A stretch of 64,000 nt of DNA, from contig MKYF01000001.1 of the NCBI GenBank assembly GCA_001914195.1, forward strand, positions 46,595-110,594, given 5' to 3'. Below the pieces are notes generated by a model that was given only the letters and a program-made list of their open reading frames with translations, made no database searches and was not told where the DNA came from. The position numbers and the translations under genes were made by a program. Shown here piece after piece: positions 24,629-46,904 of this stretch. Source of the DNA: Streptococcus mitis. Its GTDB lineage: Bacteria; Bacillota; Bacilli; Lactobacillales; Streptococcaceae. Positions within the stretch are counted from its first letter, which is position 1. Every line of letters starts with the position of its first letter.

Positions 24629-25324
24629 ATGGGAAAGACAATTTTGCTCGTCGATGACGAGGTAGAAATCACAGATATTCATCAACGTTATCTAGTTCAG
24701 GCAGGTTATCAGGTCTTGGTGGCCCATGATGGAGTAGAGGCCTTAGAAATCTTCAAGCGAAAACCGATTGATTTGATTATTACAGATATCATGATGCCTC
24801 GGATGGATGGTTATGATTTGATTAGTGAGGTTCAATACTTATCACCAGAGCAGCCTTTCCTATTTATTACTGCTAAGACCAGTGAACAGGATAAAATTTA
24901 CGGCCTAAGTTTGGGGGCGGATGACTTTATTGCCAAGCCCTTTAGCCCTCGTGAGCTGGTTTTGCGCGTCCACAATATCTTGCGGCGCCTTCATCGTGGA
25001 GGTGAGACAGAAGTCGTCGGTCTCGGAGATTTACGGATGAATCACGCTAGTCATGAGGTTCAAGTCGGAGATGTGGCGCTTGATTTGACAGTTAAATCCT
25101 TCGAACTTCTATGGCTTCTAGCCAGCAATCCAGAGCGAGTTTTTTCTAAGACAGACCTCTATGAAAAGGTTTGGCAAGAAGACTATGTGGATGATACCAA
25201 TACCTTGAATGTTCATATTCATGCTCTTCGACAGGAGTTGGCTAAACATGCCAGTGCAGAAACGCCTACCATCAAAACTGTCTGGGGCTTGGGCTACAAA
25301 ATTGAGAAAGCACGAGGTAGTTAA
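24629..25324 (+). CDS. OmpR-family response regulator (TCS08-like)
   Basis: 231 aa. It has a receiver domain (LLVDDEVEITD ... DLIITDIMMPRMDG) and a winged-helix output domain. Confidence 0.85.
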   Translation: MGKTILLVDDEVEITDIHQRYLVQAGYQVLVAHDGVEALEIFKRKPIDLIITDIMMPRMDGYDLISEVQYLSPEQPFLFITAKTSEQDKIYGLSLGADDFIAKPFSPRELVLRVHNILRRLHRGGETEVVGLGDLRMNHASHEVQVGDVALDLTVKSFELLWLLASNPERVFSKTDLYEKVWQEDYVDDTNTLNVHIHALRQELAKHASAETPTIKTVWGLGYKIEKARGS

Positions 25325-26424
25325 TGAAATTAAAAAGTTATATTTTAGTGGGGTATATCATTTCAACACTCCTAACGATTATCGTGGTTTTTTGGGCCAT
25401 CCAGCGCATGTTAATTGAAGAAAGAGAGGTTTATTTCCTAGTGGGGATGACTCTCATGGCTAGTTTTATCGGTGCTGGGATTAGTCTCTTTCTCCTTTCG
25501 CCAGTCTTTACTTCATTGAGCAAACTTAAGGAACATGCCAAGCGGGTAGCAGACAAGGATTTTCCATCAAATCTGGAGGTTCAAGGACCTGTAGAATTTC
25601 AGCAATTAGGCCAAGCCTTCAATGAAATGTCCCATGATTTGCAGGCGACCTTTGATTCACTAGAAGAAAGCGAACGAGAAAAGGGCTTGATGATTGCCCA
25701 GTTGTCGCATGATATCAAGACCCCCATTACTTTGATCCAAGCGACGGTAGAAGGAATTTTGGATGGGGTTATCAAGGAAGGAGAACAGGACCATTATCTA
25801 GCAACCATTGGACGACAGACAGAAAGACTCAATAAATTGGTTGAGGAATTGAATTTTTTGACCCTAAATACAACTAGAAAACAGGTGGAAACTACCAGCA
25901 AAGACAGTATTTTTCTGGATCAGCTCTTGATTGAGTGCATGAGTGAATTTCAGTTCTTGATTGAGCAGGAGGAACGAGACGTCCACTTGCAGGTGATCCC
26001 AGAGTCTGCCCGGATTGAGGGAGATTATGCCAAACTTTCTCGCATCTTGGTGAATCTGGTCAATAACGCTTTTAAATACTCGGCTCCAGGAACCAAGCTG
26101 GAAGTGGTGGCTAAGCTGGAGAAGAACCAGCTTTCAATCAGTGTGATCGATGAGGGGCAGGGAATTGCCCCAGAGGACTTGGAGAATATTTTCAAACGCC
26201 TTTATCGTGTCGAAACTTCGCGTAACATGAAAACAGGTGGTCATGGCTTAGGACTTGCGATTGCGCGTGAATTGGCCCATCAATTGGGTGGGGAAATTAC
26301 AGTCAGCAGCCAGTACGGTCTAGGAAGCACCTTTACCCTCCTTCTCAATCTCTCTGGTCGTGAAAATAAAGCTTACCCCCCCTTTACAAATCCAGCTATT
26401 CATGGTAAAATGGATTTTGTGTGA
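25324..26424 (+). CDS. Sensor histidine kinase (HAMP, HisKA, HATPase_c), partner of the preceding regulator
   Basis: 366 aa. It has an N-terminal TM, the H-box LSHDIKTP, the N-box LVNNAFKYS, and G-boxes DEGQGI and GGHGLGL. Confidence 0.85.
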   Translation: MKLKSYILVGYIISTLLTIIVVFWAIQRMLIEEREVYFLVGMTLMASFIGAGISLFLLSPVFTSLSKLKEHAKRVADKDFPSNLEVQGPVEFQQLGQAFNEMSHDLQATFDSLEESEREKGLMIAQLSHDIKTPITLIQATVEGILDGVIKEGEQDHYLATIGRQTERLNKLVEELNFLTLNTTRKQVETTSKDSIFLDQLLIECMSEFQFLIEQEERDVHLQVIPESARIEGDYAKLSRILVNLVNNAFKYSAPGTKLEVVAKLEKNQLSISVIDEGQGIAPEDLENIFKRLYRVETSRNMKTGGHGLGLAIARELAHQLGGEITVSSQYGLGSTFTLLLNLSGRENKAYPPFTNPAIHGKMDFV

Positions 26425-36061: not shown

Positions 36062-36219
36062 AATAAAAACACCCCATCGGCTAGATATTTTTGTCTAACT
36101 AATAGGGTGTAAGTCATGAAACGGAATGACCTATTACTTAACTTCTGTAAGGAGTAGACAGAGTTCTATATAACCCCTCAAAACCTTTATTTTAAAGGCT
36201 TTGTAATTTATTGAAGAAA

Positions 36220-36242
36220 AAATGTAGAGACAAATGTAGAGA
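36220..36242. repeat. Paired direct repeat aaatgtagaga-N1-aaatgtagaga just downstream of the integrase stop (candidate attL/arm site of the IME)
   Basis: The same paired 11-mer recurs at 46638-46660, about 10.4 kb away. Confidence 0.5.
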
Positions 36243-36245
36243 CGA

Positions 36246-37511
36246 TTAAGTAGATAGTTCAGCTATTTTATCTAAATAAATATCTACTGCCTCTAATTTC
36301 TTCTTCGGTGCTAACTCGGCGTATGTATCCATAGTTGTGTTGATAGATTTATGTCCCATACGAACTTGTAGTTCTTTCCAGTTTGCCCCAGCATTTAACA
36401 TCATTGAAGCATGAGTATGTCTGAAAATATGGAAACCATAATCAGGTAAACCAAGAGAAGTTAGTCGTTTTTTTAAAGTAGCACGTTCGTTTCTATCGCA
36501 CATATAATTTCCATAAATCGTTGGAAAGATTAACTTGGATTGAGGTAGACCTTGCTTTTTGAAATAGTTATTCATTTCTGTATAGAAATCCCTAAGGTCA
36601 GTGAGAGTAGAGTTTGGAACGGGAACCTGACGATTACCAGAATCGGTTTTTGCGGTTGGTTTACAAATCATACATCCTTTAGTACCAAGTTTCTTATTGG
36701 CGCTTTTCCACATCAATGTTTTATTTACAATAATTTCATTGTTTGTGAAATCCAAGTCATTTATTTCTAATGCTAGAAGTTCATTGATTCGCAATGCAGA
36801 AGCGAGTAAGGAATTGCAGATGGTAATAAATCGTCGATTAGCTCTGTTATTAGGCAGAGTTTTTAAGAATGATAACCATGTTTTTAATTCTTCATCATGC
36901 AAGACCATAGTTCTACGAGAAGCTAATTTAGGCTTTGGAGGGATTTTGATAGTTTTCACTGGGTTTTTAGTTAATCCAAAATGTGTGATGCCAAAATCGA
37001 AAATATCACTAAGTTTGTGAGTGACTGCTCCAAAGTCTTTTGCACTACCTTTTTCAGCACGCTTTTTCCCTGATTCAATCGATGTTCTAGCTTTTTGGGC
37101 GAGATTGTTAACCCATCTTTGAATGTCAGCAGATGTGATTTTTTCAGGAATGTAATCTCCGAATGCAGGGATGATGTAATTATATACGTATCCCTTCACT
37201 CTATTGATTGTATTATGAGAAGTAACCCAAACTTGATAATTATTGAACCATTCTTCTGCAAGTTCAGAAAAAGTGGATAATCGTTTATCTTCTTTCCTCG
37301 TTCCACCTGCTTTTTCAAAATTAACTCTAGCCGTTAGGATTTTACGGTCAAGTTGCCGTAGTGTTTTAGCTGTTATAGACGTTGTTACTTGTTTGCCTGT
37401 TTTTTCATCGATACCTAAGTAAAGGCCTCGTAAAATATAACTAACCTCTCCGTTTGAATTTGTTTTTTTGATAACCTTTTTGTTATTGTAAGTTATAGTT
37501 TCAGATGTCAT
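36246..37511 (-). CDS. int: Tyrosine-type site-specific integrase (phage integrase family)
   Basis: 421 aa. The C-terminal catalytic region ...HIFRHTHASMMLNAGANWKELQVRMGHKSINTTMDTYAEL... has the R..HxxR..Y signature. Confidence 0.9.
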   Translation of the reverse strand: MTSETITYNNKKVIKKTNSNGEVSYILRGLYLGIDEKTGKQVTTSITAKTLRQLDRKILTARVNFEKAGGTRKEDKRLSTFSELAEEWFNNYQVWVTSHNTINRVKGYVYNYIIPAFGDYIPEKITSADIQRWVNNLAQKARTSIESGKKRAEKGSAKDFGAVTHKLSDIFDFGITHFGLTKNPVKTIKIPPKPKLASRRTMVLHDEELKTWLSFLKTLPNNRANRRFITICNSLLASALRINELLALEINDLDFTNNEIIVNKTLMWKSANKKLGTKGCMICKPTAKTDSGNRQVPVPNSTLTDLRDFYTEMNNYFKKQGLPQSKLIFPTIYGNYMCDRNERATLKKRLTSLGLPDYGFHIFRHTHASMMLNAGANWKELQVRMGHKSINTTMDTYAELAPKKKLEAVDIYLDKIAELST

Positions 37512-37603
37512 AATGCCCTTTCATTATACGGATATAAAATAAAAAGGCTAAAATAGAACATTTTCTATACATAACAGACAGTTCTATTTTAGCATAATTC
37601 ATG

Positions 37604-37852
37604 TTATTTCTCTAAGAATTGGAGAACATTTTCAAGTTTATAGTAAACAGTTCTGGTTCCTTCTATAGGTGGTTCCAGTCGTTTTAGTCCTTTTTCTTCC
37701 CAAGATTTTAATGTATTCGGAGAAATTTGAAGGAGATTCAACAGATCTTTTTGGGTATATAGACCACAATAATTGAAGATGTGGGTTTCCTGTTGTAGGA
37801 TTTGTAAGAGATTTAGTAGTAGGTTTTTAATTTCAAATAGTTCTGAGTTCAT
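37604..37852 (-). CDS. xis: Excisionase/MerR-like HTH DNA-binding protein (Xis)
   Basis: 82 aa, immediately upstream of int. It has an HTH-like segment (DLLNLLQISPNTLKSWEEKGL), and the size and position are typical of Xis. Confidence 0.55.
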   Translation of the reverse strand: MNSELFEIKNLLLNLLQILQQETHIFNYCGLYTQKDLLNLLQISPNTLKSWEEKGLKRLEPPIEGTRTVYYKLENVLQFLEK

Positions 37853-37857
37853 TATTG

Positions 37858-39054
37858 TTATTCCTTTCTTTGAATAGTTGTTTCAAACTGTGTGAAGAAG
37901 CTATTAGCACGATGTATTGGTTGAGGTTCAAAGGGGTTCGTGAAAAAGTTGCTGACATCTTTTTCGTATTCCCGACTCTCATTGTTATAGTGTGTATAAA
38001 AGATATTATCCTTTTCAACCAGTATGGCTGTTTGTATTCGTCGTTCTAGCTGGTCGAAACTGTCAATTCGTTTACTGGTTTGAAAATTATCATACAACTC
38101 CTTTGGTGAGTAGGGGCTAGTTATGAATATTAGTTCAGCGGTTAATGCCTTATCTATATATCTAGAAGGTAAGAAAACATCGAAATTATAAGGGTCTAGA
38201 ATTTTCAAAAGGTCATCATATCGAAAGCTATCTGGTCGCAGTTCGTCAATAATGATAGTTTCCTGGTTTTGATAACTCTGAAAAGGGTCGCGACTTGAGC
38301 CTGTTACAAAATAAGAAGTATTTTTATTTTCTGCATAAGTCTTAGCCAGTCTTGTCTTACCAAGTCCAGACTCACCATAGATATAGACTACTTGCTTTGT
38401 CTTTTGTTCATACTTCATACGATTCAGGAATTCTCTCCCTAATCTTTCTTGCCTTTTTTCAGCAACAGCTTTAAGTCGCGTACTTGCTTTCGCATATTGA
38501 CTTCCCGTTAGCTCAGATTCAATCTCTTCTAGAGTTAATAAACCGTCATAAAGCATATCTAGATATTCTCGTATTAGTTCCCCTTCTTTTTTACTTTGGT
38601 TTCGCTCTACTTGTTTTCGAATATTTTCTAATTTTTTAGCAAAATCAAAGTTACTTATTACTTCCGAAATAGGGTACTGATATTTATTTTGAGCATCTTT
38701 AGTTTGGTGAACAAGATAACTAAAACCATTATTAGGATGCTTGAAGAATTCTAATCGTTCGATTTGAGCATCTTCACGTTTACCATTTCGTTCATTAATT
38801 TCCCAAGCTATGCTATGTGGGCTACGAGCATGTTTGAAATACATCATGAGATGAATATGGGGTTCTACAGTTTCTCCATCTTCATTAACATCTTTATCAT
38901 GTAAAATTCCTGCCCAGAGTAATGGCTCTAATAACTTAACGATTCTATCAATTTCTTTTTTCCAATCAGATAAAATAGCTAGTCGCATTTGTTGTGTATA
39001 CATGATTGCACGCTGTTTAGGGATTTTTTTATTTGTTTTTTTCTCTGAAGACAT
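37858..39054 (-). CDS. rep: Rep_2-family HUH rolling-circle initiator/relaxase fused to a C-terminal P-loop NTPase
   Basis: HDKD...PHIHLMMYF matches the pMV158 RepB-type metal-binding/HUH motifs. The C-terminal Walker A is YGESGLGKT. The likely start is ATG at 39054 (MSSEKK...), with an AAAGGAAA RBS. The ORF track extends to 39087 via GTG. Confidence 0.65.
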   Translation of the reverse strand: MSSEKKTNKKIPKQRAIMYTQQMRLAILSDWKKEIDRIVKLLEPLLWAGILHDKDVNEDGETVEPHIHLMMYFKHARSPHSIAWEINERNGKREDAQIERLEFFKHPNNGFSYLVHQTKDAQNKYQYPISEVISNFDFAKKLENIRKQVERNQSKKEGELIREYLDMLYDGLLTLEEIESELTGSQYAKASTRLKAVAEKRQERLGREFLNRMKYEQKTKQVVYIYGESGLGKTRLAKTYAENKNTSYFVTGSSRDPFQSYQNQETIIIDELRPDSFRYDDLLKILDPYNFDVFLPSRYIDKALTAELIFITSPYSPKELYDNFQTSKRIDSFDQLERRIQTAILVEKDNIFYTHYNNESREYEKDVSNFFTNPFEPQPIHRANSFFTQFETTIQRKE

Positions 39055-39080
39055 TTCAAGAATTTCCTTTCGTTTTGTTT

Positions 39081-39190
39081 TTGGCACATTGGCACAGTTT
39101 GAATGCGAGACAATGCCAAGACCAGTCTCGCAGTATTGTTAGTATTAAGGATATTTAGAGTAAGTAGTATCATTGGCACAGTTTTGTAAT
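39081..39190. promoter_or_regulatory. Origin-like region upstream of rep: three ttggcaca(g) iterons plus a perfect 8-bp-stem hairpin
   Basis: The iterons are at 39081-88, 39089-96 and 39173-80. The hairpin tgcgagac-N13-gtctcgca is at 39104-39132. This resembles the dso (bind and nic loci) of Rep_2 plasmids. Confidence 0.35.
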
Positions 39191-39196
39191 ATAAAA

Positions 39197-39247
39197 AAAT
39201 GGTGGAAGGACTTTTTGTCTTTGACAAAGTCCTTCCACCGATTTTAT
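39197..39247. terminator. Strong bidirectional terminator (11-bp perfect stem flanked by A-run and T-run)
   Basis: aaaaaaatggtggaaggactttttgtctttgacaaagtccttccaccgatttt. Confidence 0.6.
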
Positions 39248-39265
39248 AGTCTATTTGTTCATATT

Positions 39266-39829
39266 TTATTTCAATCTACTATGATTGTAAGAGCCTGTTG
39301 CTTGATACCAACGACCATCACTAGGCGCTATATTGGTAAAGAACAAGTCGGGTTCCATAGTGTGTAATTTTGTTTTAATAGCAGGGAATATTTCTTGTAC
39401 TTTCAAGAAACTTTCATGATTGTTTGGAACTTTCCACCGTAATATAGCCCCATCTTTTGTATAAATCATCGATAAGGTTAACAAAGAACGATTGGCCTTG
39501 TTGACGATTGATTTTTGAGTAGAAATCTGTTTATTTTGAGTATCGAGAATAGAATCGGACTCAAAATGGGCAAATTTTCTCAGTTCGTAGGTTGCTCGTA
39601 ATCCTTTGAGCATGTATTTTATATCACTTTTAAACCAGTGATAAAGGAAAAGAGAGAAAAGTAGGATTGAAAAAATTATCAAAGGATAGAAAAGAAAAAT
39701 AACATTTTGATAATTAATTTCAATGTTCAGATTCTGTTGAATCAAGATAAGTATAAATATAGGAAAACAGCTTACTACAGTTCCTATACATAAGATTTTG
39801 AATAGATTATACTTGTTTATCATAAGCAC
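39266..39829 (-). CDS. Hypothetical membrane protein (two N-terminal TM helices)
   Basis: 187 aa, AT-rich. Its start overlaps the ftsK-like stop. No known domain was recognised. Confidence 0.45.
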   Translation of the reverse strand: MLMINKYNLFKILCIGTVVSCFPIFILILIQQNLNIEINYQNVIFLFYPLIIFSILLFSLFLYHWFKSDIKYMLKGLRATYELRKFAHFESDSILDTQNKQISTQKSIVNKANRSLLTLSMIYTKDGAILRWKVPNNHESFLKVQEIFPAIKTKLHTMEPDLFFTNIAPSDGRWYQATGSYNHSRLK

Positions 39830-40929
39830 CTCTTGTTATAGTATGGGGTGAGGAGTGGCATGATGTTGCTGTCATGCTTTCCATCACTAAATTTGACAAT
39901 TCCTGTCCCTATTCCGCTAGGAACAACAATATTTTCAATATGAGCGTTTGGCAATAAAAACTGAGTGGTGTTAGTATTTATCTCTCCCAAAATAATAGAA
40001 CAGTTAATTTGTTCTCTAACTGCTAGATTTCCTCCAAATGCGGTAGCATCAAAACGTTGGGAAACTAGGATAAGTGAAACTTTAGTAGCTCTACCTAGGA
40101 GAGCCACAGTTCCTAATAGTTGTGCAAACGTATCTCGTGCTTGTTTTGAAGAACCCTGAACAAGAGCAAGTAGCTCATCTATGATAATGTATTTGCGTTT
40201 TAATGTAGCTTTTGGGTTTTCTAAAAGTATTTCTTGACGTTCGTAAATCTTATTGATAGCATCCCCCAGAATTTCATTTACTTCTGTGATAAAACTATTT
40301 AAGTTAGCCCCTCTTTTCGGAGACAGGACAGACAGATTTAATTCACGACCTAGAGAATAAATATCGGCACGTTTAGGGTCTACGGCTACAATATCGTCAG
40401 TTATTTTACGAATACACCTAATAAGGTATTCTAGGAAATAACTTTTTCCTGAACCAGATGAACCACTGATAGCTAAATGAACAACATCATTTAGATTGAT
40501 ACTAACTTGGTTTGACATGAGCGGAATCCTAATCTCACTAACTTCTTGATTTATAAAATGTTGGATATCAGGAATAGTTAGTCGAGTTGGAATACCATTT
40601 ACCCAAGGGAAGAAAAAACCTCTAGCAAGATTAGGGTCACCTGTCTTGTATGGGATGAAAATTGCATTACTTTGTAACATAAGCGTTTTATACGGGTAAA
40701 GGATGCCAGAACAGATATCTGCTATCTTAAAATAGAGGCTTTTATCTAAAACATAGGAAACAGGAAGATTGGGAATGAAAAACATTCCCTTATCTTCTGC
40801 CTCTAAAGAAATGGAGAAAGAGTTTGTAAAGCTCGTTTCTCCGTTGATATCTAGTGTATTGTTGAGATTACTTGTAATGAATTTAGCTAATTCATTTTCA
40901 GACATAGGCATTTTAATAGGGATAGTCAT
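39820..40929 (-). CDS. FtsK/SpoIIIE-family DNA translocase (coupling-protein-like, Tn916 Orf21/TcpA-type)
   Basis: 369 aa. Walker A is ISGSSGSGKS, Walker B is IIIDELLAL, and the family-typical motor domain is present. Confidence 0.8.
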   Translation of the reverse strand: MTIPIKMPMSENELAKFITSNLNNTLDINGETSFTNSFSISLEAEDKGMFFIPNLPVSYVLDKSLYFKIADICSGILYPYKTLMLQSNAIFIPYKTGDPNLARGFFFPWVNGIPTRLTIPDIQHFINQEVSEIRIPLMSNQVSINLNDVVHLAISGSSGSGKSYFLEYLIRCIRKITDDIVAVDPKRADIYSLGRELNLSVLSPKRGANLNSFITEVNEILGDAINKIYERQEILLENPKATLKRKYIIIDELLALVQGSSKQARDTFAQLLGTVALLGRATKVSLILVSQRFDATAFGGNLAVREQINCSIILGEINTNTTQFLLPNAHIENIVVPSGIGTGIVKFSDGKHDSNIMPLLTPYYNKRCL

Positions 40930-40939
40930 AAACTACCCC

Positions 40940-41263
40940 CTAAGCTTTGTGAATGCCTGTGGCACGGAAATACGCATTTGATTTAATCTGAATTGCTTCT
41001 AATTTATCAAATGCTATTTTCTCACCAATGTTAAATTCAGATAAATCTGGTTTGTCATCCGGAAGGAACTTCACTTTAAAAGGATTATGAGTATCCGTAG
41101 CAATCCAAATCTGATAACCAATAACTTTATCTGTCCGTTTATCGTTTTTATATTCATACTGTGTTTCTATTTGCAGTCCTACAATATAAGTTGATTCATT
41201 TCCAAGAAGTTTCTCAGCATTTTCTGAGCTATAATAGCTTGATGATTTGACTGTGAATGCCAT
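40940..41263 (-). CDS. Small hypothetical protein upstream of the FtsK-like gene (DUF961/Orf23-like position)
   Basis: 107 aa. The position is equivalent to Tn916 orf22/orf23. The family assignment is by context only. Confidence 0.35.
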   Translation of the reverse strand: MAFTVKSSSYYSSENAEKLLGNESTYIVGLQIETQYEYKNDKRTDKVIGYQIWIATDTHNPFKVKFLPDDKPDLSEFNIGEKIAFDKLEAIQIKSNAYFRATGIHKA

Positions 41264-41365
41264 ATTTTTGACCTTTCTTATTAAGGAGGAGAATAATTTT
41301 TATTCTACAGGAGTAATAGTTGTATTTAACAACTATATGTTGATTTATCTCATAGTGCCCATCTC

Positions 41366-41397
<32 letters not shown>

Positions 41398-41480
41398 GAA
41401 ATGCCACGCGTGGCTAAAGGGAGTTAAGGTCAAGTGATTTTATGTCATCAAAAATTAACAAAAATGTAACATAAAAACAC

Positions 41481-41510
41481 TTGACAGAGTGTTAATTTTT
41501 AGGTTATACT
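41481..41510 (+). promoter_or_regulatory. Near-consensus promoter TTGACA-17-TATACT driving a structured ~190-nt transcript
   Basis: ttgacagagtgttaatttttaggttatact. Confidence 0.5.
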
Positions 41511-41517
41511 CCCTTTA

Positions 41518-41709
41518 GGGAAATAAGATAAGAGATGGGCAAGAGATAAGAAAAAAATTTTTTTCATAAAGAAAAAGGGGAGTCGGGGCGTAGCCCCGTT
41601 GAGATAAGTTAGTTTCGGGTACCCGAAACTAACTAGAATGGGGCAGTGCATAAAAATTTATGCATTATTAAAAATGTAAACAGTTGAGCTTTTCTTGGCT
41701 GTTTTTTTG
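41518..41709 (+). ncRNA. Candidate structured small RNA, or sso/oriT-like region of the IME (several perfect hairpins ending in a terminator)
   Basis: The hairpins are cggggc-gta-gccccg, agttagtttcggg-tac-cccgaaactaact (13-bp perfect stem, 41607-41634), and tgcataaa-aa-tttatgca. The terminal acagttgagc...ggctgt is followed by a T7 run. There is no ORF. Confidence 0.35.
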
Positions 41710-41797
41710 TTTTCTAAAAGAAAAAATGAGAGTTTCTTCAACTTATAATTTATAGTAAAGTTCGGGAAAAATAAATTATAAAATCCTCGGAAATGGC

Positions 41798-41828
41798 TTG
41801 ACAAAAGCATTTCGGGGGGGGGTATAAT
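41798..41828 (+). promoter_or_regulatory. Promoter of CAP-domain surface protein gene with a G9 homopolymeric tract in a 19-nt spacer (candidate phase-variable switch)
   Basis: TTGACA (41798-803), then aaagcatttc plus GGGGGGGGG (41814-41822), then TATAAT (41823-28). The spacer is 19 nt. Losing 1-2 G would give the optimal 17-18 nt. Confidence 0.5.
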
Positions 41829-41917
41829 ATAGTAGGAATATTTTAAATGAGTCTATAAATCGAATGAGGAAGCGCTTGCTTCTTGGTTTTGTTAACGACT
41901 TTTATAAAGGAGACAAT

Positions 41918-44686
41918 ATGAATAAAAAAGATATTTTATTAAGCGCTGGCTTAACAACTATTCTTGTTGGGACTGGTGTTGCAAATACAACTGTCCAAGC
42001 AGAAGAGGTTGATTCTGGTCAACCCAAGCCTACGGTGAAGACGACTCCTGTTCATGTTACAGAACAAGACGTGAACACGGCAAAAGCTAATGTGAACAGC
42101 GCCCAAGCTGATGTCAACGCAAAACACGGCACAGTCGACCAAGCAAAAGCTGATAAAGTAAAAGCTGATGGCAAAATTGACTTAATCAATAAAGACATTG
42201 ACACTGCTAATAACGCAAACAAAATTATCAATGCTCAAAACGATATTATCACCAGCAAAACAGCAGACAAGACAAACGCAACAAATGATTTGAATGCCGC
42301 TAAAGATGGTGAACGTGATGCGCATACAGCACTAGACAATGCTAACACCGCAAAAACAGAGGCTGATAATGCTCGTGACGCTAAGAAAGCTGATGTTGAT
42401 ACGAAACAAGCAGACCTTGACGCAATCACAGATGCTAACGTGCGTAAAAATATCACAAACACAACTGATAAAATTTCAAACGTTGATAATGATTTGAACG
42501 CTAAAGGTGCACAAATCACAGCTACAGACACTAAAATTGCTGCTAAACAAGGGGAAATCGATAACTATAGAGTTAAAGTTATTTCAACAGATTTAAACCC
42601 TGATGAACGTAATCACACAGCTCATGATAATCTTGATGATTATGCGCATAACCACGGTCCGTATCGCAATAAACAAATGGAACCGGTTAATTTCCAAGGT
42701 GTTGACATCAAAGAAATTGATGCAACTAAAGACATGATTGATTTCACAGAGGCTTTAGCGGATTATAAGAAAGAACCGTTTGACCGTGTTACCAGAAAAT
42801 TAAAAGAACGCCCAGCATATCGCTACAAGGTAGATAACAAAGGTATTTCAGATGCATTTGTAAAATTAATTAACCAACTACGTGTTAATAACAACTTGAA
42901 GGGTGATATGGTGGTTGACGATGAGTACCTAGCATACGCGCAAAAACGTGCTGATGAAATGCAGAAAACAGGCCTATTGTCACACCGTACAAGTTTAACC
43001 GACAAACCTGGCTATATTGAAAGAGTTCAACCAGGGGAAAACGTTGAAAACATCCTTGGTGGTGCATATGGTCAACTTATTGACCGTGATGGCGAATATT
43101 TAATGTTCGACCACATTGTAACTAACGAAACATTAGCCTACGAAATGTTGTTGGGTTGGTATGATGACTACAATAACGTGCGAGGTTTAGATTATGGACA
43201 CCGTAAAAACCTATTGACACCAACAGGTGGTAAAATGGGTGTTGCTCTATCTACAATCAATGGTGTAGAAAAAACAACTTATTTCGGTTCATTCAATGCT
43301 AGCGCTTTCAAGGATTCTACTTATGAATGGGATGACGAATACAACGAATTCTTTCAGTTAAACCGAAGTCAGAGTGAGAAGGATTATTGGAACAATAACA
43401 GTAACTTCAAACAAGATGACCCAATGAACCCAACATTATACGGCAAAAAGATGAAGTTTATCGCGGATACTCATTATGTGTTTGTTAAACGTCAAATCAT
43501 CGATGACAGACCAAAAATGCAAGCAGAGTTAGATGCATTGAAAGAACAAAAAGCGACACAAGAGCGCGAACGTGATGCATTGGTTGCGAAGAAAGCTGAT
43601 TTGACTCAAGAGTTAGATGCTTTAAACAACCAATTGAATGATATTGCTACAGCGCGTACAAATGCGACAACAGCTCTAAATCAAGCAAAATCTGATTTAG
43701 CTACACTTACAGCGACCGCTCAAGACAAAGCAGATGCTGTTATTCAAAAACAAAAAGAGTTGGATAAAGCAACTGCTCGTGTAAACGATGTAACTGCACG
43801 TATCAACACAATTCAAAGTGAAATTGATGCGGCAACAAGCAAACGTGATAATGCTATGCGTGTCCACGCGCAATTACCACAATTACGTGCAAGTTTAACA
43901 CAGGCAGAAGCCGATAGAGCAAGTGTGGAACAACGCATCACAGTTGCAGAGCAAGACTTAGCGGATGCCAAAGCTCGTTTGACACAAGCACAAGCTGACC
44001 ACAAATACAAATCAGATATCTTTTCAATCGATAAGATGCTAAATCTATATACTAATGGTAACCGTGTCATTTCAGCAACACCGAAAGTTGCCCCAACAGT
44101 AGATGAATTACCAGAATTGGATATCACAGCTGACATCCCAAGTGATTTGACTACAAAACAAAATCCTGACGGTATTGGTGCGACACCAAAAGTAGCTCCA
44201 ACCGTAGACGAATTGCCAGAATTGGATATCACCGCTGACATTCCAAGTGATTTGACTACAAAACAAAATCCTGATGGTATTGGTGCAACACCAAAAGTTG
44301 CTCCAACTGTTGATGAATTACCAGAATTAGATCCAAGTGCTATCATTGATAAGCCAGCGGACAAGCCGGCAGATAAGTCAGCGGACAAGCCAGCAGATAA
44401 GCCAGCGGACAAGCCGGCAGATAAGTCAGCGGACAATCCAGCAGATAAGTCAGCGGACAATCCAGCAGATAAGCCAGCGGACAATCCAGCAGATAAGCCA
44501 GCGGACAATCCAGCGGATAAACCAACGGATAAAGTAACAGATAAACCGATGGACAAGTTGACAGGACAACAAGTTTTACCAAATACAGGAGAAAATCCTA
44601 GGGTAGCAAATTCAATTGTTACAGTTGGTTACGGATTATTAGCAATGATTGGTTTAGCAGGATTATTTGTTAAGAGGAAAAACTAA
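41918..44686 (+). CDS. LPXTG-anchored surface protein with N-terminal coiled-coil region, central CAP (SCP/PR-1-like) domain, second coiled-coil, 35-aa tandem repeats and PADK repeats
   Basis: The likely start is ATG at 41918 (signal peptide MNKKDILLSAGLTTILVGTGVANTTVQAEE), with an AAAGGAG RBS. The ORF track start 41864 is upstream. CAP-like motifs are GENVENILGG, LLGWYDDY and GHRKNLL. The sorting signal is LPNTGE plus a hydrophobic stretch plus KRKN. Confidence 0.75.
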   Translation: MNKKDILLSAGLTTILVGTGVANTTVQAEEVDSGQPKPTVKTTPVHVTEQDVNTAKANVNSAQADVNAKHGTVDQAKADKVKADGKIDLINKDIDTANNANKIINAQNDIITSKTADKTNATNDLNAAKDGERDAHTALDNANTAKTEADNARDAKKADVDTKQADLDAITDANVRKNITNTTDKISNVDNDLNAKGAQITATDTKIAAKQGEIDNYRVKVISTDLNPDERNHTAHDNLDDYAHNHGPYRNKQMEPVNFQGVDIKEIDATKDMIDFTEALADYKKEPFDRVTRKLKERPAYRYKVDNKGISDAFVKLINQLRVNNNLKGDMVVDDEYLAYAQKRADEMQKTGLLSHRTSLTDKPGYIERVQPGENVENILGGAYGQLIDRDGEYLMFDHIVTNETLAYEMLLGWYDDYNNVRGLDYGHRKNLLTPTGGKMGVALSTINGVEKTTYFGSFNASAFKDSTYEWDDEYNEFFQLNRSQSEKDYWNNNSNFKQDDPMNPTLYGKKMKFIADTHYVFVKRQIIDDRPKMQAELDALKEQKATQERERDALVAKKADLTQELDALNNQLNDIATARTNATTALNQAKSDLATLTATAQDKADAVIQKQKELDKATARVNDVTARINTIQSEIDAATSKRDNAMRVHAQLPQLRASLTQAEADRASVEQRITVAEQDLADAKARLTQAQADHKYKSDIFSIDKMLNLYTNGNRVISATPKVAPTVDELPELDITADIPSDLTTKQNPDGIGATPKVAPTVDELPELDITADIPSDLTTKQNPDGIGATPKVAPTVDELPELDPSAIIDKPADKPADKSADKPADKPADKPADKSADNPADKSADNPADKPADNPADKPADNPADKPTDKVTDKPMDKLTGQQVLPNTGENPRVANSIVTVGYGLLAMIGLAGLFVKRKN
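44075..44530 (+). repeat. Intragenic tandem repeats: 3 x 105 bp (ATPKVAPTVDELPELDITADIPSDLTTKQNPDGIG) followed by ~15 x 12-bp PADK/SADK/PADN repeats
   Basis: The periodicity is visible in the nucleotide sequence. The many antisense or low-complexity ORFs here are artefacts. Confidence 0.85.
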
Positions 44687-44734
44687 ATTAAGGGTGATTA
44701 AAGATAGGAAATTTGAAGTATGAACAAATGAAGT

Positions 44735-45433
44735 ATGAACAAATATAGTAGAGAACAATTGATGGAAATGTTTGGATATAGTTTCCAAGTTTTGAAAGCT
44801 GTATCTGATTTAAATAAAGCTATTTCAGCAGAACAAAATAAAGCATATAGTGGTATTATGGGGAACTATGGCAAGCTTAAAAAAGTATATAATTTAAGTG
44901 TATTAGGTTTTATAGCATTTTGCTTCTTGTTAGGAATTATTCAAGGAACTGTACTCTCGTTATTTGAGTATATTATATGGGGAGCGATTTCCTATGGGGT
45001 TTTTCAACTTCTGTTTTCCCCACTTGTTCTGATTGTAAAAGCTGTGTATAAGCACATTGCAAAAAAAGAATTTACAAATGCTGCTAATAATGATGCTTCT
45101 AATGCTTATCGCCAAAAAGGTATTGAGTTAATGAAAGATGAACAGTTTGTGGCATATAAAAGAGAAATTCCAGATTCTTACTTTAACATGAATGACCTTT
45201 ATTTACTTTATAGTTATTTAGAGACTTACAGAGCCGATAATTTTAAAGAGGCCGCCAATTTATTAGCAGAAGAGAAACATCGTGATAAGGTCGAGTATAG
45301 TCAAGAAGTTATGCAAAAGAGTTTGGCTTCTATTCAAGCAAATGCTACTTATCAATCTGTCATTCAAACAATTCATTTATTAGAGACTCAGAAATTACAT
45401 CGTACAGTGAAAATAGGAGTTTTTGGGGAATAA
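44735..45433 (+). CDS. Hypothetical membrane protein (IME cargo)
   Basis: 232 aa with two or three TM helices in the first half. It is AT-rich, and no family was recognised. Confidence 0.4.
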   Translation: MNKYSREQLMEMFGYSFQVLKAVSDLNKAISAEQNKAYSGIMGNYGKLKKVYNLSVLGFIAFCFLLGIIQGTVLSLFEYIIWGAISYGVFQLLFSPLVLIVKAVYKHIAKKEFTNAANNDASNAYRQKGIELMKDEQFVAYKREIPDSYFNMNDLYLLYSYLETYRADNFKEAANLLAEEKHRDKVEYSQEVMQKSLASIQANATYQSVIQTIHLLETQKLHRTVKIGVFGE

Positions 45434-45470
45434 AAAATGGGAGCTATCTAGTTATAACTAGGTAGTTTCT

Positions 45471-46046
45471 TTGGAAAGGTGTATAATGATGTTATTTTTT
45501 AGAAACGTAGTAAATTATGTAACAAAATACTCAGAATTAGAATATATCCTAGAGAATGATAAACTTGTGATAAAGAACTATTATAAACAAAGTGCAGGAG
45601 AACGAGAAACGTTTGAAGAATATGTTAGACAACGTGGCGTAAGAGTTTATCGTATACTTTCGTTCAAAAAAGTACCTCTAGAAAGGTTTAGTGAACTGAT
45701 TAGGAAAGTTAAAGACTATTGTAAACAGATAGATACTCCTCTTGAAGAAATTGATAATACAAAGTTCCCAGACTACAAGGATAAAAGTTATCGAGTGCCA
45801 GAAAGATTATATGGGATAGACTATTATAAAAATGGTAGTTTGTTGGTAAGTGGTAGAATGCAAGATGTAGCAGTTATCATGAGATTTAGGCCTAATCTTA
45901 GAGAATTTTTAAAGAGTGATAATCTAATAATTGAAGTGGAAGAACGGGACGGGAAACCAATTGGTGAAAGTGTAAAATCTATTTGGTCGCAAGGGTTTAC
46001 GACAATGACGAAAGAAATTGAATCAAATAGTGTATCCGAAGATTAG
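45471..46046 (+). CDS. Hypothetical protein (IME cargo)
   Basis: 191 aa. It has no recognisable motif and has an AT-rich codon composition. Confidence 0.4.
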   Translation: MERCIMMLFFRNVVNYVTKYSELEYILENDKLVIKNYYKQSAGERETFEEYVRQRGVRVYRILSFKKVPLERFSELIRKVKDYCKQIDTPLEEIDNTKFPDYKDKSYRVPERLYGIDYYKNGSLLVSGRMQDVAVIMRFRPNLREFLKSDNLIIEVEERDGKPIGESVKSIWSQGFTTMTKEIESNSVSED

Positions 46047-46086
46047 TTTGCTGTTTATATAAAAATAAATAGTACGAGGTGTTAGA

Positions 46087-46473
46087 ATGCAACTAATAAA
46101 TTATGAAGCATTTTTAAGTGCTAGAGATGCTCTAACTTTTGAAGAATGTCAAAACATTCATCAGACAATTCTAGACAATATTGGTAACGATGAGGAAATT
46201 TTAGAAGTATGGTCTGATTTTTTGCAAGCTAGTATAAGCTATGCTCATATTCGTAGCCAGTGGTTGCTTTGGGAACGTGAAGAGCGTCAACAAAAAGATG
46301 AAGGTAGAACATCAAAGCATGAGCGAGTAATATATTGTCTAAAGCTTCTTAGTCGTTATCTAGGGCAAGAAGGTGTGGACGTTTCATGGTTTGATTCTAT
46401 AGAGGATAACAGAAAGCAAATAGGAGATTTTGCTTGTTATATAGCTTATATCTACTCTATAAATGCTAGATAG
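46087..46473 (+). CDS. Hypothetical protein (IME cargo)
   Basis: 128 aa. It has an RBS (gaggtg), and no recognisable motif. Confidence 0.4.
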   Translation: MQLINYEAFLSARDALTFEECQNIHQTILDNIGNDEEILEVWSDFLQASISYAHIRSQWLLWEREERQQKDEGRTSKHERVIYCLKLLSRYLGQEGVDVSWFDSIEDNRKQIGDFACYIAYIYSINAR

Positions 46474-46477
46474 AAAA

Positions 46478-46503
46478 TGCAGGCTGATTAATGCCTGCAT
46501 TTT
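46478..46503. terminator. Perfect hairpin terminator (aaatgcaggc-tgattaat-gcctgcattt)
   Basis: A 10-bp perfect stem lies 4 nt after the stop of the 128-aa ORF. Confidence 0.55.
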
Positions 46504-46637
46504 GAACTTCAATTATTCATTCAAAAGATTTTACTATTTTCATGAATAAACTTGAAGTGAAAGAATAAAAAATGAAGAGCTACTCATCTGTGAAGTAGCT
46601 CTTCTCTTATATCCGTAATCTCTTTTTATTTATCTGA

Positions 46638-46660
46638 AAATGTAGAGAAAAATGTAGAGA
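46638..46660. repeat. Second copy of the paired direct repeat aaatgtagaga-N1-aaatgtagaga (candidate attR of the IME), ~95 bp downstream of rpmG
   Basis: It matches 36220-36242. Confidence 0.5.
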
Positions 46661-46754: not shown

Positions 46755-46904
46755 CTATTTAACCTCTGTAAACACAACGTGTTTGCGAAGTTTTGGTGAG
46801 TATTTCTTCAATTGAAGACGGTCTGGAGTGTTACGTTTGTTTTTAGAAGTAAGGTACAAGCGTTCACCAGATTCTTTGTGTTCAAGTGTAATATTTACGC
46901 GCAT
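46755..46904 (-). CDS. rpmG: 50S ribosomal protein L33
   Basis: 49 aa ([49 protein letters not shown]). It is below the 60-aa cutoff of the ORF track and was found by manual translation. Confidence 0.85.

Follow-up and report, generated by a model that had tools for sequence, protein, structure and literature searches.

Promoter switches driven by simple-sequence repeats are textbook material in Neisseria, Haemophilus, Bordetella and mycoplasmas, with promoter-tract cases that include the poly-C runs of opc and fetA, the poly-A run of Mycoplasma hyorhinis vlp, and the TA repeats that lie within both of the two overlapping divergent fimbrial promoters of H. influenzae hifA/hifB. To our knowledge, such switches are barely documented in streptococci, and a search of the literature returned no repeat-driven promoter switch reported from the mitis group or for PrgA-like proteins. 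Among promoters studied by experiment, the closest to the one described here is that of meningococcal porA, in which a G tract lies between the −35 and −10 hexamers, with 11 G's giving high surface expression, 10 G's approximately 2-fold lower expression and 9 G's approximately 13-fold lower expression (PMC3639595). The nearest streptococcal analogue is the Spy1336/R28-Spy1337 intergenic T tract of S. pyogenes M28, where no transcript is seen with 9T and transcript levels are higher with 10T and 11T; its length alters how far apart two ATTTTT direct repeats stand, within a region that a divergent regulator gene shares (PMC7098570). On the protein side, the pCF10 surface-exclusion protein PrgA has a stalk of two helices that places its CAP-fold head ∼40 nm away from the wall (bioRxiv 10.1101/2020.06.18.156562).

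Here, we analyzed a 64,000-nt stretch of S. mitis DNA (the window), in which a run of G's sits inside the spacer of a promoter upstream of a wall-anchored surface protein gene. We consider it probable that this poly-G spacer is a slipped-strand hypermutable repeat that tunes transcription of a PrgA-like surface protein operon. Direct reading of the sequence and a script both agree with an earlier sequence-only reading that the two hexamers are perfect consensus matches, that they stand 19 nt apart, and that nine of the intervening nucleotides are consecutive G's. The whole promoter stretch reads ggcTTGACAaaagcatttcGGGGGGGGGTATAATatag, with a spacer (41804-41822) made up of AAAGCATTTC followed by G9. 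This is the sole run of eight or more G or C residues in the window (G+C 39.5%), and from base composition only 0.057 G/C runs of nine or more would be expected per 64 kb. Perfect TTGACA-N14–22-TATAAT pairs occur twice in the window versus ∼0.29 expected from base composition, while perfect promoters with a G9 run in a 19-nt spacer are expected ∼3e-7 times per window on the same basis. The second-longest G/C homopolymer of the window is a C7 at 26376-26382, close to the 3′ end of the ORF at 25324-26424.

Since our promoter scan accepts only spacers of 16–18 nt, the G-tract promoter is not itself reported by it. The scan found no better promoter between the upstream terminator (41678-41704) and the CAP-domain surface protein gene (CAP gene), and we infer that the TTGACA/TATAAT pair is the promoter in actual use. 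Two other candidates were rejected: alternative −35 elements placed for a 17-nt spacer at G9 or G10, for which the candidate hexamers match at no more than 2/6 positions, and read-through from an upstream promoter-like site at 41481-41510, since the terminator stands between that site and the gene. In addition, one related contig (L026) has the promoter and gene joined to unrelated upstream DNA exactly at this terminator. Because of that junction and of the intervening terminator, the G-tract promoter and its gene appear to form a self-contained cassette. The tract lies 96 nt upstream of the start codon, and downstream of the promoter the predicted 5′ leader contains a small hairpin, picked up by the scan for terminator-like structures and followed by GGUUUUGUU. 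The RNA fold in the leader reaches −17.7 kcal/mol (z = −2.0), and pairing in the hairpin is preserved in a second haplotype through a C-to-U change that gives a G-U pair. This hairpin could be an attenuator or a stability element. The features of the locus are collected in Table 1.

Table 1. Features of the G-tract promoter, its operon, the neighbouring sites and the surrounding element, in window coordinates
Feature	Position	Strand	Basis and remarks
Putative integrative mobilizable element, 10.4 kb, carrying the promoter and CAP gene	36207-46660		Pfam, direct repeats
Imperfect direct repeats, at both element ends	36207-36242 and 46625-46660		83% identical
Tyrosine integrase	36246-37511	-	Pfam
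Rep_OBD+helicase relaxase	37858-39087	-	Pfam
FtsK/TcpA-like protein	39820-40929	-	Pfam
Compound repeat (TA)7 T17, second hypervariable tract	(TA)7 41367-41380, T17 41381-41397		direct reading and script
Divergent promoter-like site TTGTCA-18 nt-TATAAT	41775-41804	-	promoter scan, 11/12 matches
−35 hexamer TTGACA	41798-41803	+	perfect consensus, direct reading and script; unchanged in 71/71 related loci (four variants)
Non-G spacer segment AAAGCATTTC, 10 nt	41804-41813	+	unchanged in 49/49 T1 loci
G9 homopolymer, hypervariable spacer segment	41814-41822	+	direct reading and script
−10 hexamer TATAAT	41823-41828	+	perfect consensus; same in 48/49 T1 loci
Predicted 5′ untranslated region	41835-41917	+	transcription start predicted at ∼41834-41836; holds hairpin 41867-41884 and RBS AAAGGAG 41909-41915
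PrgA-like surface protein gene, 922 aa	41918-44686	+	signal peptide, helix 49-215, CAP head ∼220-528, helix 531-708, repeats, LPNTG anchor
Predicted membrane protein, 232 aa, conserved partner of the CAP gene	44735-45433	+	homologue of the 228-aa gene at paralogous loci
Two ORFs, 191 aa and 128 aa	45471-46473	+	ORF list
rpmG, just outside the element	46755-46904	-	ORF list; rpmF ORF also found

To compare the tract among strains, as the sequence-only reading had proposed, genomes, metagenomes and viral contigs were scanned for the exact pattern, and contigs with genes for identical neighbouring proteins were looked up. After removal of three duplicates, this gave 49 independent S. mitis-group contigs with the promoter variant of the window (T1), including the isolates S. 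mitis SK564 and SK629 and S. hohhotensis IMAU99199; the viral-contig scan contributed one of these T1 loci and none of the T2 or T4 variants described below. One contig (L028) proved to be a chance match to the search pattern and was discarded, and the G8 call of isolate 17/34 (L020) was set aside as unreliable, since homopolymer errors are found throughout that assembly. The number of G's, which for the majority of loci was read from metagenome consensus contigs where long homopolymers may be miscalled by one base, had its mode at G9 (23 loci), followed by G10 (16), G8 (5), G11 (3), and G7 and G12 (one each). The single exception to the −10 hexamer within this set, L031, reads G12 followed by ATAAT. 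The tract is therefore not invariant but spans G7 to G12 between flanks that are almost the same: the 380 nt upstream and the 95-nt leader show a mean difference of ∼2% among T1 loci, approximately four times less than the 8.8% seen in the coding region.

Tract length also differs between loci that are otherwise nearly indistinguishable. Three groups of T1 loci with 0–1 substitutions over ∼1.8 kb each contain more than one length: G9 nine times and G10 twice in the first, G9 four times and G11 once in the second, and one G8, one G9 and two G10 in the third. A neighbour-joining tree built from 29 loci calls for no fewer than 10 changes in tract length, a figure that matches the mean of 10.4 needed when the labels are shuffled, and tract length therefore carries no phylogenetic signal. 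The phase-variation reading put forward from the sequence of the window gains support from these comparisons, in that the repeat lies inside a promoter spacer and its number is polymorphic among close strains with conserved flanks, in T1 as well as in the T2 and T4 variants.

It could be argued that these length differences are sequencing or assembly errors around a tract of constant true length. Long G runs are error-prone, many of the contigs have low coverage, and the 17/34 assembly has several homopolymer indels nearby. Against this, lengths differ within one project and one assembler among contigs encoding an identical protein (L011-L015; L042-L044; L091-L100), and the differences include steps of two and four bases (G9 versus G11; G10 versus G12 and G14). 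Elsewhere in this 1.8 kb, homopolymers of the same assemblies seldom vary outside 17/34, with those of 7–9 nt being nearly always constant. Three paralogues that have no G tract serve as a further comparison, with upstream regions that are identical in 10, 10 and 6 contigs save for one A7/A8 difference. Finally, the tract is found in assemblies from independent platforms and years, and we regard error as the whole cause of the variation as extremely improbable.

G/C runs of eight or more in 620 kb of related DNA all belong to the G-tract promoter or to a diverged relative of it. Four variants can be told apart by the non-G segment of the spacer. T1 has AAAGCATTTC (10 nt) plus G7–12 and a −10 of TATAAT, and is the type of the window, found at 49 loci on the rpmG element. 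T2, with AAGCCATTC (9 nt) plus G9–11 and TATAAT, is chromosomal and occurs at 11 loci with an amidohydrolase gene on one side and comG genes on the other. T3 is known from a single contig (one locus) and has AAAATTC (7 nt) plus G12 and TATAAT. T4 has AAGGCATTC (9 nt) plus G10, G12 or G14 and a −10 of TATACT, at 10 loci on another integrase-bearing element with all flanks identical; this group is identical over 1215 nt and still contains G10 eight times, G12 once and G14 once. Examples of sister promoters lie at L045:1629-1659, L081:2112-2142 and L091 ∼1420-1450. The T2–T4 promoters stand in front of a 228-aa gene, which is followed by a CAP gene ∼41% identical to that of the window. Since the 228-aa protein is a homologue of the 232-aa ORF (64% identity, E = 4e-99) that sits downstream of the CAP gene in the window, the promoter and the two genes form one module with a rearranged gene order.

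Although the surroundings of the four variants have diverged to a mean column identity of 77%, the promoters align gap-free from the −35 through the −10. Total spacer length at 70 loci was 17 nt once, 18 nt six times, 19 nt 39 times, 20 nt 19 times, 21 nt three times, and 22 and 23 nt once each, with one more contig (L102) adding another case at 21 nt; the mode is 19 nt in each of the four variants. The mean number of G's differs between T1 and the combined T2 and T4 loci (9.33 versus 10.38, Mann-Whitney p = 2.4e-5), whereas the total spacer does not (19.33 versus 19.38, p = 0.64). Judged from these sequences, the number of G's compensates for the length of the non-G segment such that the total is held near 19 nt. 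Because the total stays constant while the number of G's shifts, which neither neutral slippage nor artefacts would predict, selection appears to act on promoter geometry, namely the distance between the −35 and the −10.

The same data bear on the idea that the G run is mutationally unstable yet functionally neutral, its likeness to phase variation being incidental. The modal spacers of 19–20 nt are indeed poor by the textbook rule and the 17-nt spacer is nearly absent, as a tract without function would allow. However, neutrality should let the tract drift in length or acquire interruptions, and four variants have instead retained both hexamers and an unbroken G run despite the divergence around them and the rearranged gene order, in addition to sharing the same total spacer with different numbers of G's. 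We consider neutrality improbable. Homologues further afield have other promoters. A 36%-identical paralogue has TTGACA and TATAAT separated by 18 nt with no G run, and the 80%-identical paralogue, also with no G run, has an unrelated promoter and adjoins a divergent gene for a 308-aa HTH_3 regulator. Another paralogue, 49% identical, carries choline-binding repeats in place of the LPXTG anchor. In S. suis, the homologous module has an ordinary extended −10 promoter and no G run, and the switch therefore appears confined to the mitis group.

Under the mechanism we favour, the G run would act as a simple-sequence repeat highly prone to mutation, set in the spacer of a promoter read by the housekeeping sigma factor (sigma-A/sigma-70 type), driving the PrgA-like CAP-domain wall-anchored protein, its 232-aa partner and probably the two ORFs that follow. 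Slipped-strand mispairing at replication would add or remove G's, and each G gained or lost would change by one base pair how far apart the −35 and −10 stand and how they are rotated relative to each other, resetting transcription of the operon. A lineage would in this way keep yielding cells with differing amounts of the long-stalked surface protein, as phase or ‘volume’ variation. Expression would then depend on tract length, and length changes would be frequent and reversible within a culture. Mismatch repair is present in S. mitis and may keep switching far below the rates of classical contingency loci.

Which length corresponds to high expression is less clear-cut. The canonical optimum for a promoter spacer is 17–18 nt, and the sequence-only reading had accordingly treated G9 with its 19 nt as suboptimal, with 17–18 nt as the optimal state. 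The populations do not bear this out, since they sit at 19–20 nt, with 19 nt modal in all four variants and the 17-nt spacer that is optimal by the rule present at 1/71 loci. That 17–18 nt is the ON state is therefore doubtful: the canonical rule favours it, while the population data favour 19 nt. Taken at face value, the textbook rule would leave the gene low or off in most strains, which fits uneasily with stabilising selection on 19 nt. A helix containing a G run would be more compact and under-wound, and a 19-nt spacer of this kind may act like a shorter one. This leaves two readings: expression is kept low most of the time, a single step away from ON, or the G-rich 19-nt spacer is the working configuration.

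The region upstream of the promoter contains several further sites. The second slippery tract that had been noted ∼420 bp upstream, the compound repeat of Table 1, was located 417 nt from the G run. Among otherwise near-identical loci it ranges from (TA)5 to (TA)9 and from T2 to T48, with nearly each locus distinct, and is more variable than the G run. A weak promoter-like site on the minus strand (41361 to 41332) lies directly next to this repeat, which occupies the place where an UP element would be expected; the site would serve the genes for a 107-aa protein, TcpA and the relaxase. The promoter-like site at 41481-41510 mentioned above is strong (TTGACA-18-TATACT). Downstream of it come ∼195 nt with pronounced predicted secondary structure (RNA fold z = −4.8, 41481-41712 region), a stretch that holds a perfect 28-nt palindrome (41607-41634) and ends in the terminator at 41678-41704. 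Against the pCF10 Anti-Q RNA family (RF00388), this stretch scores 24.8 bits, short of the gathering score (45). Candidate roles for it are that of a small regulatory RNA running convergently with the leftward promoter (41775-41804), or that of an origin of transfer for the element. At gathering thresholds, Rfam returned nothing in the window, and permissive thresholds gave sub-threshold matches only.

The leftward site is of interest for the switch itself, since its −35 overlaps that of the G-tract promoter by five bases. It is conserved in T1 loci, with haplotype B reading TATAAA, and the two promoters could compete for RNA polymerase. This raises the question of whether the tract acts mainly by some route other than −35/−10 spacing, either through the balance of two back-to-back promoters that share a −35 region or as a regulator-binding or structural site. 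The strength of the divergent site (11/12 matches), its retention in T1 and the precedent of H. influenzae hif, where one repeat governs two divergent promoters (cited in PMC7098570 and PMC5084427), all speak for competition. On the other hand, the spacer of the divergent promoter does not include the G run, and by sequence reading T2 and T4 retain the G run with no comparably good divergent promoter. A regulator site would sit oddly with the finding that no regulator gene adjoins the promoter in the window, and the compensation of total spacer length points at −35/−10 geometry whichever form the argument takes. We find a main role apart from spacing unlikely, and competition between the promoters may instead be a possible added layer on control by spacing.

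The product of the downstream gene was identified from sequence as a CAP-domain surface protein in the earlier reading, and the Pfam search concurs, with PF00188 at 27.4 bits versus a cut-off of 21.1 and a match to Gram_pos_anchor that accords with the LPXTG motif. The likely start codon is ATG 41918 rather than the in-frame ATG 41864 that opens the mechanical ORF, since the former is preceded by a ribosome-binding site and begins a typical signal peptide, MNKKDILLSAGLTTILVGTGVANTTVQA. Gene callers of public assemblies report a 940-aa product from ATG 41864. In an AlphaFold2 model built on 18 homologues, the two long helices (pLDDT >90) flank a mixed alpha/beta head, and a disordered region of 35-aa and PADK repeats lies between the second helix and the anchor. 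The best Foldseek match among solved structures is full-length enterococcal PrgA (6z9l_A, E = 7e-10, 724/744 aligned, 16% identity), with the next matches being SMC-type coiled coils that are four to five orders of magnitude weaker. The protein thus shows the PrgA/Sec10 layout of a secreted, LPXTG-anchored protein with a two-helix stalk and a central CAP-fold head. At the level of sequence, TIGR04320 (SEC10/PgrA) reaches 35.3 bits versus a cut-off of 70, over residues 609-694 only, and neither phmmer nor a family-profile search of PDB sequences returned PrgA, the hits being coiled-coil noise. Because the structural match holds and sequence-level membership does not, we call the protein PrgA-like in architecture.

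Among homologues, the protein varies from ∼870 to 970 aa in length through its 35-aa and PADK-type repeats. Together with the fourfold greater divergence of the coding region relative to the promoter and leader, this suggests that the exposed protein evolves by diversifying or mosaic evolution behind a conserved switch. In three contigs (L039, L027 and L023), the CAP gene is split or has 1–2-nt deletions (in L039, into 607 aa and 389 aa), and these are either pseudogenes or assembly errors. The 232-aa gene is probably co-transcribed with the CAP gene, with the terminator scan finding no plus-strand terminator between the two. A perfect 15-nt tandem duplication (TGAAGTATGAACAAA ×2, 44714-44743) spans the start codon of this ORF. 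The 191-aa and 128-aa ORFs, which have no family match in Pfam, NCBIfam or PHROGs, possibly belong to the same operon, as no plus-strand terminator was found downstream of the CAP gene before ∼46574.

The promoter and its operon lie on a putative mobilizable element in which the integrase, relaxase, TcpA/FtsK-like protein and small ORFs are on the minus strand, the plus strand carrying the CAP gene and three ORFs. Coluzzi et al. (2017) described an ‘rpmG opposite’ class of streptococcal elements, with the integrase at the opposite end, a Rel_PF01719-PF00910 relaxase and TcpA (PMC5357655). The element in the window has a tyrosine integrase, a PF01719+PF00910 relaxase and a TcpA/FtsK-like protein, no type IV secretion genes, flanking direct repeats and rpmG at the end opposite the integrase, and by its gene content matches the streptococcal integrative mobilizable elements at rpmG (PMC5357655). 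It contains no gene for a PrgB-like adhesin and no other LPXTG gene. No tRNA genes were found in the window, and BLAST of the locus against plasmid and phage collections gave no match.

The kind of mechanism proposed here is already known; poly-G spacer promoters of the mitis group on mobilizable elements, their control of a PrgA-like protein and the compensating tracts appear to be undescribed in the literature searched. As a candidate the locus is clean, in that both hexamers are perfect and one element alone varies, and a natural allele series from G7 to G14 is present in public data. As far as sequence comparison can indicate, it offers a case in which total spacer length is held constant by selection while repeat number shifts. 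If our reading is right, commensal streptococci and their mobile elements would vary a major surface structure through contingency loci, which would matter for immune recognition, for aggregation and for the exchange of genes with S. pneumoniae, and 17 nt as the optimal spacer would be called into question where the spacer is a G run. A more far-reaching version, which we offer as speculation and rate as rather unlikely, is that the poly-G run is a selected rheostat and not an ON/OFF switch, its 19-nt set point kept by compensating G number in at least four promoter lineages. It would then stochastically vary a PrgA-like protein with a 25-nm stalk that hinders cell contact, such that a clone would hold cells both permissive and refractory to conjugative DNA, an element-encoded bet-hedging on horizontal gene transfer, and in the window copy the shared −35 would couple the switch reciprocally to transcription towards the mobilization genes.

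Set beside the described systems, the protein resembles E. faecalis PrgA (Sec10) in its signal peptide, two long stalk helices, central CAP head, LPXTG anchor and location on a transferable element. Unlike PrgA, with which it shares 16% identity, it has a stalk of ∼165 residues per helix versus ∼250, followed by a long disordered repeat region, and lacks a PrgB-like adhesin gene nearby; its close paralogues are chromosomal, and PrgA is pheromone-induced and not repeat-controlled. As in hif, a repeat lies in a promoter spacer and the promoters are divergent and overlapping, and the window also has a nearby (TA)n repeat and a divergent promoter sharing the −35. In contrast to hif, only one of the promoters contains the G run, and 417 nt separate it from the (TA)n T(n) tract.

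The M28 R28 tract comes from the same genus, and is likewise a polymorphic homopolymer upstream of an LPXTG surface-protein gene in natural populations. It differs in being poly-T and in not being described as a −35/−10 spacer, whereas the S. mitis tract is poly-G, lies in the spacer and has no adjacent regulator gene. Compared with porA of Neisseria meningitidis, the S. mitis locus belongs to a Gram-positive, low-GC host that lacks such runs elsewhere (in 620 kb of related DNA); both of its hexamers are perfect consensus, it resides on a mobilizable element, and its spacers in the S. mitis group span 17–23 nt with a mode of 19, versus 15–17 nt in porA. What the two have in common is the arrangement itself: a surface-protein gene, a G run inside the promoter spacer, and lengths of that run that differ from strain to strain.
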